Below, one piece after another: positions 36,001 to 42,000 of a stretch of DNA of 64,000 nucleotides. Each line of letters opens with the position of its first letter. Position 1 is the first letter of the stretch. The position numbers were made by a program. The stretch comes from Candidatus Zixiibacteriota bacterium (GTDB lineage: Bacteria > Zixibacteria > MSB-5A5 > GN15 > JAAZOE01): positions 64,001 to 128,000 of the forward strand of contig JBDREQ010000063.1 of the NCBI GenBank assembly GCA_043819555.1, given 5' to 3'.

Positions 36001-39000
36001 GGGGGAAAGAAAATAATAAAAACCGTCTTTCACGAGGATTTTAACGTTCATATTGGAGTGTTCAAGATTCGCTGTTATCGCAGTCCGGAAAAAGAAGCCC
36101 GGGTGTTGGAACGTGTCAAAGGAGATAGCCGATTTATGCAGGGGTATACGATTGAGGACGAAAAAAGTAATTGTATTCGAGTTCTTGATTATATACCCGG
36201 CTTGACCATTTTTAATTATATCTATTCAATCAACAAACCTCATCGCCAGTATTTTCAGGAAGATCTACCCGGAATACTCCACGATCTGGCCGAATCGATG
36301 GAAGCAATTAAATTCCTTCATGATAATGACTTTTGTCATGGTGATATTCGCAACGATCATATCATTATTGAAACCGGGACCAGGCATTTTCGCTGGATTG
36401 ATTTTGACTTACAGCAGCATGTTTCTGATTTTGATGTCTGGAGTATGGGTAACATTTTATGCTATGCCGCCGGTAAAGGAATCAACTCCTTTAAGCTGGT
36501 GTTAAAAGGACAGTCATTTTCTGAGGAAGTAAAACGGAGCCTGATAGCTGATGATGGATCAGCATTTTATGAATACCGCATTATGAATTTAATAAAACTG
36601 TTTCCCTATATTCCAGAAAAATTGAACAACATTCTTCGTCATTTTACTCTGAACCCGATTGGTCATTACGCGACGGTGGGGGAGCTTTTGGACGATTATT
36701 ATGACATGCTGGATTCGGATTTTCCTGCAATGTCTCAGCAATAAGCGGGGTTAATGAGGCCATGAAAACTGTAATCATAGGCGGAGGAAAAGGCAGCCGA
36801 GCGATAATCGAGCTGGCCACAGGCAATTTTAAAAGCGAGTTAACTCTTGACGTGCAGTGTGTGGTCGATCCCGATGATAAAGCCCCCGGAATAATCCTGG
36901 CCAGGCAAAAGGGCATCAAGATATTCGATAATATGCTTGAAGCGCTGGCTCTTCCTGGAATAGAACTCGTCATCGAATTGACCGGTGAAAATGAACTCCT
37001 GGAAGAACTTCACCATATCCTTCCAAAGGGTATCTGTCTTGTCGACCATACGTTTGCGCATGTCTTCTGGGATCTGGTCAAGGCTCGAGAAGATCAAAGC
37101 AGACAGCTCAAAGAAAAAATCGAGCTGGAGAAAAAAATCGAACGCGAACGGCATTTTTTACAGAGTTCATTCGATACCATCCCCGAGCTAATTATTGTCA
37201 TGAACACCGAAACAAAAATAATAAAAATTAACGAGAAAGCGGTTCGCTTCGCGCATACGTCCACTTCAAAAGCTGTCGGGGAAAAATTGAAAAACCTGCT
37301 TACTCAGACCGAATTGTCGGGGAGCATTCAGGAAACCCTATCAGTATTGAAAGATATTTTAGAAACGGGTCGGCCTCACATTTTATTTTGGAATACAACC
37401 GAGCCGGAAGAAGTTTTTTGGGAAATTACGCTAAGCCCCATTCTTGATCAGAACCTGGAAATAGAAGCTATTGTCGGAACATGGCATCGAATCACCGAAC
37501 GGGTTCGATTGCATCGTGAAATTGAGAGTGCCGAGGTTCGCTTCAGGGGATTTATTGATTCGGCTCATGATTGGATATCGATCAAAGATACCGAAGGACG
37601 GTATATCATCGTCAATCCGGTTTGTGCCCAGGCTTTCAAACGCAAACCGGAAGACTTTGTTGGCCGCCGCCCGGATGAGTTATTTGACCGGGAACTGGCG
37701 GAAATGATATTAAAGCATGATCATGATGTGATGGCCGCCAATCAAGCTCAAAGTTATGAGGAAATATTTAACATTGATGGATTTGATCGCCATTATAGCA
37801 CAGTCAGGTTTCCTCTCAATGATTATCGCGGGCAAACAATCGGAGTCTGTACCATCGCCCGCGACATCACTCAGGAGCGGGAATTGAACGACCAGCTGGC
37901 TCAGGCTGTAAAATTGGCAGCGATAGGCAAGCTCGCCGCAGGTGTCGCCCATGAAATCAATAACCCCTTAACCGGTGTTTTGGCCTATGCCGAAGATATT
38001 TTGGATGAATTACCAGCCGATAATCCTCTTCATAGTGATATTAAAGTCATTATTCGGGAGACAATGCGGTGTCGGGATATCGTAAAGAATCTGCTTGATT
38101 TCGCTCGGCAGGAAACACCCAAACTGGAAGAAGCGAATGCCAACGATATTGTCAAAAACACCATTGAACTGGTCAAAAAACTGCCGCAGTTTCGTAATAT
38201 CACACTTAAATATTCGCTGGCCGACAATATCCCGGATATAAACTGCGACCGCCATCAAATACAACAGGTCATACTAAACCTGATGATAAATGCGGCTGAA
38301 GCGCTTAAGGAAATGGGCAAAATAGAAATCACGACAGAATATGATTTTCGGCATCAGCGCTGTATAATCACGGTGATCGATAATGGTCCGGGAGTCCCGG
38401 AAAATCTGAAAACCAAAGTTTTCGAGCCGTTTTTCTCGACCAAGGGCACTAATGGATTAGGGTTGGCCGTTAGTTGGGGCATTATCGAAAGGCATAAGGG
38501 TTTTATTGAAATTGATACTAATAAATCGGGGGGCGCGATCTTTAGATTAGCAATTCCAATTATTGAGAACGATAAAAAATGAATTTACCGGAAACAACAA
38601 AAGGCGAGGAGGATTAGATTATGTCTCGCTCATTGGATATTTTAATCGTTGATGACGAGCAGGTTGTTCTCGACAGCGTCAAGAAACATTTGCGAAAAAA
38701 TAATTATAATCTGATTACGGTATTATCCGCGCAGGAAGGCCTCGATTTATTGGATAAATCAACTCCCGATATTATTCTAACTGATTTGATGATGCCGGAT
38801 ATAGACGGGCTGGAACTGATGAGAATTGTCAAGGACAAATACCCCCATTTGCCGATTATCATGATTACCGGTTATGCCACTATAAATACCGCTCTTCAAG
38901 CGACTCAGTTGGGGGCCTTTGATTATATTGCCAAACCATTTACAAAGTCGGAATTGATTTCAGTTGTCCAGCGCGCCGCGGATTTGGTTCTGAACATTGC

Positions 39001-42000
39001 CAACGCAGAAAAAGATAGTGCCCATGAAATACCTATAAAGAATGAAATATCAGGCGAACTTAAAAATGTTGGCGACCATGTATGGATTATGGTTGAAGAT
39101 GATGGTCACGTTCGGATGGGAATCGATCGTTCATTTTTGCATGCCATTGGAAAAATACAAAATATATTTTTACCCGCAGTCGGAGACAAGCTCCGCCAGG
39201 GCAGCAAATATCTCCAAATATTTTCCTCTGATTTGCGCTCTCATACCGTTCTCTCTCCATTATCCGGAACAGTCATAGAAGTAAATGATCAATTGCAGGA
39301 ACAGCCCAAAATATTAATTGAAGATCCCTTTGGCAAAGGATGGTTAATTCGCCTTAAGCCTTCAAAATTCGATTATGAAATTAGTGAACTGTAGATGTGG
39401 CGGATTTAAGAAGCCGATATCGTAACCTTGTTGCGATCCAGCTCGTTTCGCACGGCCCCTCCAAGACTGGCCATAGAAAATGGTTTGCGTACATATTCTC
39501 CGGCGCCAAGAGTCTGCATTTCATTGACACGTTCAGTAGCCGAAAAGCCACTAATTATAATCGCCTTTTGAGCCGGATGTATTTTTAAAATATCACGGTA
39601 TGTGTCGAGGCCATCATAATCTTGTTCCATTATAATATCCAAAAGGATAATATTAACGGAATGGTTTTTCAGAAATTCAATTGCTTCATGACCGTGCCTG
39701 ACCACACTAACATCATATCCAAGATTGGTTAGTAATTCATATGCGACCTGCCGCTGCTCCGGATTATCGTCGACGACAAGCACGCTTTCTGTGCCCGAGC
39801 AATCATTCGTTTCTATTTGACTTTCGGCTTCGGCTGCTTTGCACAGCGGGAAATAAAGAACAAATTCACTTCCCTCCCCCTCGGCAGAAAAGATATCATA
39901 ATATCCTTTGTGGTCCTTGACTATACCGTAAACTACTGCCAGCCCCAGGCCGCTCCCGGATTTGCCCATTTTTTTATTGGAATAATAGGGCTCAAAGATT
40001 TTTGATTGGTCTTCAAGTGGAATACCCGTTCCTGTGTCGCAAATTCTTAAAACTATATAATCCCCGGCCTCAATATTATCGAATCCCCCCAGAAGAGTAT
40101 CAAGATGGAGCGCTTCAGTACTTATAGATAAACTTCCCTCGCCTTCCATTGCGTCAAAGGCGTTGACTATCAAATTCATGATTACTTTGACAAGATGGGG
40201 AGGCGAACCAAGCATGAATGGCTGTTGTGAATCTAATTCCAAATCGATTTTTATTTCTGGCCGAGTTGTTGATAAAAAATGATAAGATGGTGAATCAAGG
40301 TACTCCTCGATTACATTATTTAGCTTAATAGGTTTTATTTCATATCGTCCCCGACGCGCTAGTGTTAATAGATCCTGAATAACATCGGCGGCGTCCTGAG
40401 CCGATTTCCCAATGCGCTCAATCTGTTTTTTATAGGGACTATCTTCTTCCAGCCGGGAAAGAATTAGATCGCTATAGCCGACCATCGGGCCCAGCATGTT
40501 ATTCAAATCATGAGCCACGCCGCCGGCCAAAACGCCCAATGATTCCATGCGTTCGGCGCGTTCCAGCTTATCCTTCAAAACCTGTTGCTGTGTTTGGACC
40601 CGGCGCAATTGGCTCAAATCGACGTCAAGGCAATACATCTCGTCCTCGCCGCGGCTGTTGCACAACATAACATGACTGCTATAGACCGGAATAATTGAGC
40701 CATCCTTATGGCGCATTCCATATTCGCCCGGCCCGTATTGAATTGCTATCTGATTATCATCAACCTCAACTTTATATGAGTCATAGGTCATCAAGTCTTC
40801 AAGTTGTTTACCCATGACTTCTTCTTGCGAATATCCATATAATATTTCGCTGGCTGTATTCCAGAATATTATCCTGCGGTCGCAGTTATATCCCTGGACG
40901 GCAATGTTGGGAACCCCTTCAAGAATCGCTCTGAACCTCTCCTCGCTTTCTCTCAAAGCCTCTTCCGCCTGCTTTCTTTCGGTTATATCTCTTAATGCGC
41001 ATTGAATGTAGGTCACCTTACCATTTTCAATAATTGGAGTTGTCGCCACTTCGACATAAAATGGAGAGGTGTTTTGGGGTTTATATAAGAACTCGAAATT
41101 GGCGGCTTTTTGATGTCTGACTATCAGCCGTATGAGTCTTAACGCTCTCTCGTATTCGTCCTGGTAAACAAAGTACTTCTTGATGTTTTGGCCGATTTCT
41201 TCCTCCGGCTTATAGTCGCCGAAATATTTGATGGCCGGGCTGATATATGACAATGTTCCATCCAATGATATTTTGACAACCATATCCTTGAGATTGTCGG
41301 CGATTACGCGGTAATGCTCTTCACTATCTCGCAGAGCATCTTCGGCCCTTTTTCGATCAGCGATGTCAATTATGAAATTCAAACCGGCACGCTGACCCTT
41401 CCAGGTTATCAAAGTTCCGCGGACTTCCACCCAACGTGGTTTATTCCCTTTATCCACAAATCTCATGGAATAAACGGCAGGAACATCTTCATCGTCTTGA
41501 AATTTTTTATTGTTTTCTTTTATCCAGTTTAGATCACCGGGATGAACGATATCATGTATGTGCATATCCTTCAGTTCATCAATAGTATAACCGGTCAGAG
41601 CTTCCATTTCGGGATTGGCAAAAACAACTTTGCCCTTCTGTACAATACAAATACCCTCTTTGGCGTCCATCACCAGGCGGCGATATTGACTTTCTGATTT
41701 TCTTAATGCGGCTTCAATATTATTTCTCTCGGTTATATCATTTCCTGAACAAACGATACCGGTAATTTGTCCCAGAGAATCGGTTAATTGAGCGTGATTC
41801 CAGGCAATAATCTTTTTCTGTCCGGATTTTGTCATGACCGGTATTTCGCAATCTGTTTCAGGAAGCAATTTGCCTGAAATTATTTTTTCAAACTTGTCCT
41901 TGTTTTTATGTAGACCATCATCCGGAGCAAAAATCCTATTCCATTTTTTCCCGATAATATCGTCTCGCCCATATTCCAAAACCCGGCAACCATAATCATT

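Follow-up and report, generated by a model that had tools for sequence, protein, structure and literature searches.

A receiver domain fused to a relative of the glycine cleavage H-protein (GcvH) raises the question of what a response regulator could control through such an output. Most response regulators bind DNA, and other outputs are few. The gene encoding this fusion, designated here REC-GcvH, lies on contig JBDREQ010000063.1 of a Candidatus Zixiibacteriota bacterium, within the 64,000-nucleotide stretch of DNA that was analyzed (the window; Table 1).

Domain architecture and conservation of the regulator

As stated in the initial annotation, both domains reside on a single open reading frame: Response_reg (E 7.4e-31, 107 bits versus a cut-off of 30.2) and GCV_H (E 3.9e-20, 72.4 bits versus 22.2) are above their Pfam gathering cut-offs, indicating matches far beyond chance. 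No DNA-binding or enzyme family in Pfam and NCBIfam was matched by the C-terminal domain, and a sequence scan found no hydrophobic segment in it. The AF2 model consists of two separate domains and a disordered linker (pTM 0.59), with the linker following a long alpha-5 helix. These predictions support the view that REC-GcvH is a real response regulator, the output of which would be an H-protein-fold domain rather than a DNA-binding one. A new response-regulator output class had been proposed for it, and this part of the proposal, namely a non-DNA-binding H-protein-fold output without the canonical lipoylation site, is retained, whereas docking onto a lipoyl enzyme is not. A full-text literature search found no paper describing the receiver-GcvH architecture.

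Table 1. Window coordinates of the three-gene unit and of the sites discussed in the text.
Feature	Coordinates	Strand	Basis
Weak sigma-70-like promoter match, 94-nt spacer ahead of PKL	35693..35721	+	TTTTCA-17-TATACT, 9/12
PKL, atypical Hanks-type protein-kinase-like protein (324 aa), first gene of unit	35770..36744	+	Pfam Pkinase; AF2 and structure match
Soluble PAS-PAS histidine kinase (606 aa)	36762..38582	+	Pfam: PAS 134-244, PAS_4 266-374, HisKA 389-452, HATPase_c 496-599
REC-GcvH response regulator (257 aa)	38621..39394	+	ATG-start ORF; Pfam Response_reg and GCV_H
Receiver domain (residues 7-116)	38639..38968	+	Pfam
Acidic pair D11/D12 of receiver	38651-38656	+	Codons read
Phospho-acceptor D55 of receiver	38783-38785	+	Codon read
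Linker, variable, probably disordered (residues 129-145)	39005..39055	+	AF2 pLDDT <50; no conserved column among 120 homologues
GcvH-like domain without lipoyl-lysine (residues 150-250)	39068..39370	+	Pfam GCV_H; Foldseek
R192-Q193-G194 of GcvH-like domain	39194-39202	+	Codons read
Hairpin tip D204	39230-39232	+	Codon GAT read
H208 of GcvH-like domain	39242-39244	+	Codon read

Conservation was followed in an alignment of the 120 homologues listed (each with both Pfam domains, 252-268 aa, 55-88% identity) together with the genome's own true GcvH. Residues D11, D12, D55, T83, Y102, and K105 of the receiver are each conserved in 120/120 homologues. As judged from this alignment, the receiver is of the intact CheY type originally described, with the acidic pocket, phospho-acceptor Asp, switch Thr, Tyr, and Lys all in place, and every residue needed for phosphoryl acceptance is present. 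Residues 83-107 (alpha4-beta5-alpha5) hardly vary, even where overall identity is 38%, as expected if this stretch is a working switch surface. Among PDB sequences, the receiver matches RssB best (3eq2, E 1.1e-21).

In the output domain, the column of the lipoyl-lysine in true GcvH is occupied by Asp204 in all 120 close homologues listed; thus, lipoate cannot be carried at the canonical site. The replacement by Asp noted previously is confirmed for these homologues, but its invariance is limited to the close clade: more distant regulators with the same operon (L014 and L018) have Asn or Lys at the tip, and 37 distant full-receiver representatives have D (20), E (5), G (4), N (3), K (2), R (1), A (1), or T (1). 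The flanking GcvH core SP-SG-V--VN is kept, as had been claimed (P213, G216, and N222, each in 120/120), and the W155, LP184-185, and DP..GW core motifs are also preserved. The domain scores below the cut-offs of both NCBIfam GcvH models (NF002270, 75.6 versus 117; TIGR00527, 70.7 versus 115.85), and a quick tree separated it from the Lys-bearing GcvH clade.

The top Foldseek match of the AF2 model is the E. coli H-protein (3a8i_E, E 3e-11; H-protein target TM 0.77-0.80), and the best matches as a group are H-proteins complexed with T-protein, LplA, and LIAS (3a8i, 3a7a, and 8ugo). In the model, D204 occupies the turn that joins strand 196-202 to strand 207-211, the position of the lipoyl-lysine in the H-protein. 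Compared with GcvH (PF01597; E. coli H-protein, PDB 3a8i/3ab9), the domain has the same fold and core motifs but carries Asp in place of the lipoyl-lysine, has one residue more in the hairpin (between the tip and the SP motif in the alignment), is fused to a receiver, and lacks gcvT/P neighbors.

The family is larger and more widespread than first reported. Rather than 137 homologues, 755 proteins match REC-GcvH at E<=0.001, many of which may be receiver-only, and the best 150 domain hits include at least 37 full-receiver representatives (50% identity) with the receiver-GcvH architecture. Their labels (Zixibacteria, Ignavibacteria/Bacteroidota, Planctomycetota, Abyssobacteria, Verrucomicrobiota, Aerophobetes, and Gemmatimonadota) span several phyla, as opposed to mainly Zixibacteria and a few Bacteroidota.

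A conserved unit with a kinase-like protein

REC-GcvH is the last gene of a conserved three-gene unit, preceded by genes for a kinase-like protein (PKL) and for a PAS histidine kinase, the latter directly upstream on the same strand, in agreement with the initial annotation. The spacers are 17 nt (PKL to histidine kinase) and 38 nt (histidine kinase to REC-GcvH), the second of which contains AGGAGG. A sequence scan found no hydrophobic window in the histidine kinase. The promoter ahead of PKL is a consensus match only, with 19 such sites in the region versus 9.6 expected. A HisKA/HATPase_c kinase, the putative cognate kinase, is the immediate upstream neighbor of REC-GcvH at 16 of the 18 loci examined. 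The complete order of PKL, histidine kinase, and regulator on one strand occurs in 12 of the 18 (species-genome collection) and extends to regulators only 37-44% identical (L014, L015, and L018), while the flanking genes vary. PADLOC defense-system models gave only generic kinase or receiver-domain matches (best E 5e-6).

PKL lies just under the Pfam Pkinase cut-off (E 2.7e-7, 30.7 bits versus 31.7), and its orthologues match this family weakly in 10/10 cases (best E 3.9e-9). Its AF2 model (pLDDT 85.5, pTM 0.83) aligned in VIA-align with PknB of S. aureus (Z 16.7), PknB of M. tuberculosis (Z 16.6), and PknG (Z 16.5). Invariant in 10/10 orthologues are K84, E109, H190-G191-D192, D211-F212-D213, and D222-x-W-S-x-G227, and the sequence and model together indicate a bilobal Hanks kinase fold in which the beta3 Lys (K84), alphaC Glu (E109), catalytic Asp (D192), and metal-binding Asp (D211) are kept. 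The canonical catalytic-loop Asn position is taken by His197 (aligned with the Asn of titin kinase), and just 8 residues separate DFD (D213) from DxWSxG (D222), leaving no activation segment; accordingly, the alignment of PKL contains neither the catalytic-loop Asn nor an APE-ended activation segment. PKL therefore shares with the Hanks-type kinases PknB/Stk1, PknG, and YabT the fold (Z 15.5-16.7) and the beta3 Lys, alphaC Glu, HxD, DFx, and DxWSxG motifs, but differs from them in an extra N-terminal helix and beta-hairpin, the absence of transmembrane and PASTA parts, the lost activation segment, the His substitution, and a score at or just under the Pfam cut-off.

The regulator and PKL are co-inherited almost without exception. 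In a hand count of 285 genomes of the window's phylum, the regulator was present in 56, PKL in 54, and both in 53, with the two ~1.9 kb apart on one contig in 47 of these 53 genomes. Contig ends account for two of the four exceptions (G133 and G244), and in G174 and G252 the regulator and histidine kinase are present and PKL is absent. In four genomes where PKL does not adjoin the regulator (L010, L011, L012, and L019), a strong orthologue is encoded elsewhere in the genome (E 1e-151 to 1e-154), so the pairing outlasts linkage. The two genomes with the most distant regulators (L017 and L020) lack PKL, as do 11 phylum genomes with a distant REC-GcvH (families f14 and f15). Conversely, Desulfo-type genomes contain PKL relatives, and G286 a second PKL copy, that adjoin Usp genes and are found without REC-GcvH, indicating that PKL is not dependent on the regulator in general. 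Operon co-inheritance shows shared function; it is not evidence of which domains touch.

Proposed mechanism and alternative explanations

The conserved pairing with PKL points to an undescribed signaling route rather than to a metabolic enzyme. REC-GcvH would be the response regulator of a cytoplasmic signaling unit comprising PKL, the soluble PAS histidine kinase, and REC-GcvH itself, in which the histidine kinase would phosphorylate D55 and thereby alter the presentation of the GcvH-like domain. This domain may retain the ancestral H-protein habit of offering its hairpin to partner enzymes and would dock on PKL and switch it; a His-Asp signal would thereby reach a Ser/Thr-type kinase without its own activation loop. 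The missing activation segment would suit control by a bound partner, although the direction of control could be either way. A probability of roughly 0.4 is assigned to this reading, in which the dead H-protein domain serves as a docking output and couples His-Asp signaling to a kinase-like partner. A bolder version appears distinctly unlikely: the lysine-less hairpin, gated by phosphorylation, would plug into the Hanks-type kinase and supply the lost regulatory element in trans, so that a recycled lipoyl-carrier fold would relay signals directly from His-Asp to Ser/Thr phosphorylation, with lysine-less GcvH serving as a general docking module of signaling proteins towards enzymes that once recognized lipoyl carriers, including Hdr/Dsr-type redox complexes. 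The hairpin differs between PKL-linked clades (D...H versus N/K...F), which weakens the idea of the tip itself as the contact.

Alternatively, the barrel could be a mere dimerization or small-ligand module, with the receiver alone doing the work of the protein, either as a phosphate sink or in the manner of a CheY-like single-domain regulator. In the H-protein, a surface cleft accommodates the loaded lipoyl arm, and a free ligand could fit there. Separate domains on a disordered linker in the AF2 model and a variable tip residue in the wider family are compatible with this explanation, and a general-purpose barrel would be expected to recur in unrelated architectures, as many lysine-less GCV_H domains do. 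However, R192, Q193, D204, and H208, at or beside the hairpin, and E253 are clade-specific invariants, and such surface-type polar residues suggest a specific contact. This explanation would also leave the close co-inheritance with PKL unaccounted for, and a barrel of this kind is considered rather unlikely.

The same co-inheritance data would fit an unlikely scenario in which PKL phosphorylates the GcvH-like domain, with its Ser/Thr-rich hairpin (S202, S203, S207, and T209), or the receiver, such that the regulator integrates two inputs and acts on some other output partner. Phosphorylation of response regulators by Ser/Thr kinases has precedents, enzymatic modification is the ancestral role of the lipoyl hairpin, and Ser/Thr residues occupy positions 202, 207, and 209 in 117/120, 107/120, and 100/120 close homologues, respectively. 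In contrast, the PKL-linked L014/L018 clade keeps a hydroxyl residue only at 202, and PKL lacks the activation/P+1 segment by which Hanks kinases hold peptide substrates, as well as the canonical Asn.

Comparably low odds apply to docking on an Fe-S/heterodisulfide-reductase-like or NrfCD/DsrMKJOP-like redox complex, where the domain would gate electron flow as a stand-in for a lipoate- or DsrC-type carrier, with PKL as a further accessory specific to its clade. Outside the window's lineage, redox proteins of the Fe-S, NrfD, or Hdr-like kinds are encoded beside lysine-less GcvH domains or form fusions with them. Genes for a NarI-like protein, a 542-aa Fer4_8 protein, Fer4_11, and NrfD lie directly upstream of the unit on the same strand in L014 and L018, and distant f14/f15 REC-GcvH genes of the phylum are located <=2.5 kb upstream of Fer4_11 and NrfD genes in 5/5 loci, with a hydrophobic C-terminal tail in the 4 complete copies. 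P0179 is a fusion of a receiver, GCV_H, and 4Fe-4S (JGI name 'heterodisulfide reductase subunit C'), P0127 combines three lysine-less GCV_H domains with an FAD oxidase, Fer4_8, and two CCG domains, and the window's genome encodes 5 NrfD and 4 CCG proteins. These three supporting lineages are nevertheless few, each representing one event, and the window's own clade, with its variable flanks, has no Fe-S/NrfD/Hdr-like gene as a conserved neighbor; a 4Fe-4S protein at 43111-43950 is not conserved beside the unit.

Finally, the originally favored docking on and switching of a lipoyl-dependent enzyme (glycine cleavage P/T/L, 2-oxoacid dehydrogenase, or lipoate ligases), with its link to one-carbon flux, is very improbable: it has fold ancestry and possible targets in the genome (true GcvH, one E2, and LplA/LipB-type genes) in its favor, but the genome's gcvH, single E2, and lipoate ligases are all on other contigs, no glycine-cleavage or lipoyl-enzyme gene is a conserved neighbor in the 18 loci examined, the conserved partner is a kinase-like protein instead, the domain falls under both NCBIfam GcvH cut-offs, the regulator occurs in just 56/285 phylum genomes, and ordinary GcvH, as found with a control profile from the same domain, is widespread in another phylum (253/301 genomes), where only 2 genomes showed REC-GcvH.

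Comparison with known systems and significance

The output domains of RssB (a receiver with a dead PP2C-like domain, an adaptor) and PhyR (a receiver with a sigma-factor mimic) have lost their original chemistry and serve as phosphorylation-controlled protein-binding surfaces. REC-GcvH likewise joins a receiver to a domain from another family that has lost its chemistry, although its output fold is a different one; the claim of a first protein-mimicry output had overlooked both precedents. LbpA of sHdr sulfur oxidation is described as a lipoate-binding protein with a strictly conserved lysine and two conserved cysteines (eLife 2018, PMC6067878). LbpA is GcvH-like and functions together with heterodisulfide-reductase-like Fe-S enzymes, and neighbors of this kind occur beside some lysine-less GcvH domains, whereas the REC-GcvH domain has neither the tip Lys nor any Cys, and the window's clade lacks Hdr-like neighbors.

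REC-GcvH would add a widespread, unstudied output type to response regulators, in which a carrier-protein fold is re-employed after loss of its cofactor site. Its near-obligate pairing with a kinase lacking an activation loop may be a concrete case of wiring between two-component systems and Ser/Thr kinases, and the repeated Fe-S/NrfD/Hdr-like neighbors of lysine-less GcvH domains hint at regulated anaerobic respiration in uncultured phyla.

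Domain architecture of the regulator

By Pfam, the regulator comprises a receiver domain (residues 7-116, E 7.4e-31) and a glycine cleavage H-protein domain (GCV_H, residues 150-250, E 3.9e-20), the protein scoring well below the cut-offs of both NCBIfam GcvH models (75.6 bits versus 117, and 70.7 versus 115.85). A database search returned 755 proteins matching the regulator at E≤0.001. All 120 listed homologues (252-268 aa, 55-88% identity) contain both domains and, where named, are labeled 'response regulator' (Zixibacteria) or, by JGI, 'CheY-like chemotaxis protein/glycine cleavage system H lipoate-binding protein'. 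When these 120 sequences were aligned with the genome's one true GcvH, the ordinary lipoyl-lysine-bearing H-protein encoded on a different contig (150.8 bits), the lipoyl-lysine column was found to hold aspartate (Asp204) in every homologue. The GcvH core SP-SG-V--VN is retained in the aligned homologues, as are H208 (119 of 120) and R192, G194, W155, N222, D235, W241, and E253 (each 120 of 120). The receiver is competent, with all key residues present: D11, D12, D55, T83, Y102, and K105 are invariant in the same set.

In the AF2 model (pLDDT 77, pTM 0.59), a disordered linker (residues 129-145) separates the two domains, D204 occupies the turn linking strand 196-202 to strand 207-211, and the top Foldseek matches of the C-terminal half are the H-proteins of E. 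coli, Thermotoga, Thermus, and bovine origin. Thus, the domain matches, the aspartate column, and the modeled fold confirm the initial annotation of a receiver joined to a GcvH-like domain without the lipoyl-lysine. This domain, designated GcvH*, has an H-protein fold and is not lipoylatable at the canonical site. It differs from GcvH in three of four membership criteria, and the protein belongs to the receiver family.

Features of the regulator locus and its flanks (window positions)
Feature	Position	Strand	Remarks
Diaminopropionate ammonia-lyase	34482-35675	+	NF006058, 443 bits vs cut-off 276; just upstream of unit
PKL, first gene of unit	35770-36744	+	protein-kinase-like
Histidine kinase of unit	36762-38582	+	soluble, two PAS domains
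Regulator (finding)	38621-39394	+	ORF, 257 aa
Hybrid histidine kinase	39406-42783	-	1125 aa, four PAS + receiver; convergent with unit
4Fe-4S protein	43111-43950	-	279 aa; after hybrid histidine kinase
Crp/Fnr-type regulator	44032-44727	-	same cluster as hybrid histidine kinase
Single-domain receiver	44773-45132	-	same cluster as hybrid histidine kinase
DUF5131, HTH + IrrE-like peptidase, PIN-domain gene	46349-48775		grouped together

A conserved three-gene unit

Comparison of 18 regulator loci (the window and 17 species genomes) revealed that in 12 of them a 320-344-aa protein, a histidine kinase, and the regulator are encoded on one strand in the same order, and that all flanking genes differ; these 12 include three loci (L014, L015, and L018) whose regulators are just 37-44% identical to that of the window. 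Spacers of 17 and 38 nt separate the genes of the window's unit, with AGGAGG lying in the second, and the gene downstream of the regulator is convergent. The histidine kinase begins with MKTVIIGGGKGSRAII... and carries a Rossmann-like glycine motif, GGGxG, within residues 1-100 (36762-37061, +). These ~100 N-terminal residues gave only sub-threshold matches, to GFO_IDH_MocA (E 0.063) and NAD_binding_3 (E 0.12), with a best PDB match at E 0.67. A nucleotide- or redox-sensing input is conceivable here, but is not claimed from these matches.

In relatives, neither the diaminopropionate ammonia-lyase gene nor the second signaling cluster (39406-45132, -) is conserved at this place beside the unit. 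The genes grouped beyond that cluster resemble a small patch of mobile or toxin-antitoxin-like type. The unit of the closest species genome (L003, 12724-15757, -) is located near genes for HPr kinase, a ribosome hibernation factor, and rpoN, none of which occurs in the window's flanks. PADLOC gave no defense-system assignment.

The first gene of the unit encodes the protein-kinase-like protein PKL. In a survey of 285 genomes of the window's phylum, using regulator and PKL profiles and counts taken by hand from the match tables, the regulator profile matched in 80 genomes at E≤1e-40. Of these, 56 have a regulator of the window's type, either complete at E≤1e-100 or truncated at contig ends, another 11 have a distant full-length receiver-GcvH* protein from family f14 or f15 (E 1e-54 to 1e-60), and 13 have receiver-only matches in proteins of ~470 aa. 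The PKL profile matched in 54 genomes (E≤1e-30), and 53 genomes possess both PKL and a window-type regulator. In 47 of the 53, the two genes share a contig and are separated by ~1.9 kb; in the other six they are on different contigs of fragmented assemblies. Two of the four exceptions to this pairing are assembly ends, the contig breaking off inside the kinase gene (G133) or, downstream of PKL, partway through an open frame of 614 codons (G244); in the remaining two (G174 and G252), regulator and kinase are present and PKL is absent. Outside the phylum, four genomes with no PKL beside the regulator have a strong PKL orthologue (E 1e-151 to 1e-154) at a different site, among unrelated neighbors, and no PKL was found in the genomes of the two most divergent regulators (L017 and L020). 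Co-inheritance of the regulator with PKL and with a soluble PAS kinase is near-obligate.

A co-inherited kinase-like protein

PKL scores 30.7 bits against Pfam Pkinase, slightly below the cut-off of 31.7, with weak Pkinase matches in all 10 of 10 orthologues and a profile match to titin kinase (E 2.9e-7). Its AF2 model is confident (pLDDT 85.5, pTM 0.83), and bacterial Hanks kinases head the structural neighbors of this model (S. aureus PknB, Z 16.7; M. tuberculosis PknB, Z 16.6; PknG, Z 16.5; YabT, Z 15.5), with Foldseek concurring. Invariant residues include K84, E109, H190-G191-D192, D211-F212-D213, and D222-x-W-S-x-G227, as well as His197, which aligns with the catalytic-loop Asn. Only eight residues lie between DFD and DxWSxG, and PKL therefore has no activation segment.

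The wider PKL family numbers 1119 proteins (E≤1e-5), which are labeled 'serine/threonine protein kinase' or 'hypothetical'; in the protein atlas, consulted for leads only, its clusters are 'hypothetical' and most commonly from Thermodesulfobacteriota. PKL relatives that stand without the regulator occur in Desulfo-type genomes, and G286 has one as a second copy. Usp genes adjoin them in two of three such loci, directly so in a Desulforhopalus-labeled genome (L095, 7467-8924) and at the second copy in the Abyssobacteria genome (L097, 7710-9802). The PKL family may generally be paired with a small partner protein.

The wider receiver-GcvH* family and its association with Fe-S redox genes

With residues 140-257 as query against 1.84 billion representatives, 4411 matches were obtained at E≤0.001 and 417 at E≤1e-10; among the best 150, a full receiver precedes the domain in 37 and a shortened one in 12 more. 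The hairpin-tip residue in the 37 full-receiver representatives is D in 20, E in 5, G in 4, N in 3, K in 2, and R, A, and T in one each. Asp at the tip is thus not universal across the wider family, and the His four residues past it and a Q-G pair on the adjacent strand are mostly retained in these representatives. The hairpin was also considered as a conserved phospho-site, which was not upheld across the PKL-linked clades. A quick FastTree, approximate and read for topology only, places most receiver-linked domains in one large clade and the window's close clade on a separate branch, with the Lys-bearing GcvH clade distinct from both.

Additional receiver-GcvH* taxa include Aerophobetes and Gemmatimonadota (from cluster labels) and Ignavibacteria/Bacteroidota, Planctomycetota, Abyssobacteria, and Opitutaceae (from genome records). 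In 301 Verrucomicrobiota genomes, nearly all matches to a GcvH*-only profile were ordinary GcvH, and among 30 loci inspected only G289 (two tandem copies) and G432 encode receiver-GcvH* proteins. In G289 (L020/L098), which is Opitutaceae-labeled, a HAMP histidine kinase gene is followed by the two tandem copies, the second with a ~60-residue C-terminal extension. In the protein atlas, again for leads only, the GcvH* part reaches only 0.82 against plain GCV_H clusters.

Receiver-free lysine-less GCV_H domains are also numerous among the domain-search matches, as ~230-aa proteins with the domain in the middle, as 530-580-aa proteins (one with PBP_like_2), and as tandem repeats. One protein of 1391 aa (P0127) combines three lysine-less GCV_H domains with FAD_binding_4, FAD-oxidase_C, Fer4_8, and two CCG domains, and another fusion, named heterodisulfide reductase subunit C by JGI, joins receiver, GCV_H, and 4Fe-4S domains. 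P0127 amounts to a GlcD-like FAD oxidase and 4Fe-4S dicluster fused to its GCV_H domains; no description of such an architecture was found.

At L018, the unit is immediately preceded by genes for NarI-like, Fer4_8 (542 aa), Fer4_11, and NrfD proteins; at L014 they are also present by clustering, with a Pfam basis for the NrfD protein only. This set resembles DsrMKJOP/Hme, a name that reflects a reading of the domain set and not the output of a tool. In f14/f15, the receiver-GcvH* gene is shortly upstream of Fer4_11 and NrfD genes in five of five loci, usually with two further receiver proteins between, and a hydrophobic, membrane-anchor-like segment occurs in the regulator (as a C-terminal tail) and in both receiver neighbors. 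A HAMP kinase and a sigma-54 activator are encoded nearby in these loci (L082-L086). Together, these neighborhoods and the fusions with Fe-S domains tie lysine-less GcvH domains in at least three lineages to redox machinery of the Fe-S type.

Proposed mechanism and alternatives

The favored interpretation, with a probability of roughly 0.4, is that phosphorylation of D55 by the histidine kinase would alter the presentation of GcvH*, which would then dock on PKL and control it. Both complex predictions run for PKL and GcvH* (residues 140-257) scored 0.00, compared with a mark of 0.32, and count neither for nor against binding. No DNA-binding or enzyme signature was found in the output domain. 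A purely dimerizing or ligand-binding barrel is an unlikely role for GcvH*. It is quite unlikely that the regulator is instead a substrate phosphorylated by PKL, and similarly so that GcvH* docks on complexes of the Fe-S/Hdr/NrfCD type. Five NrfD proteins, four CCG proteins, a single E2, and two LplA/LipB-type proteins are encoded in the window's genome, all away from the unit. Docking on a lipoyl-dependent enzyme, the bolder proposal of the initial annotation, had fold ancestry as its sole support and is very improbable.

The regulator that would control PKL can be likened to RssB and PhyR, which are adaptor-type regulators with a disabled domain taken from another family. No publication on a receiver-GcvH fusion was found in the literature covered, which includes census papers and excludes the key 2006 Galperin classification; database auto-annotations already name both domains side by side. 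For a response regulator, the output domain seen here is undescribed, as is the three-gene unit, with its activation-loop-less kinase, to which the gene belongs.
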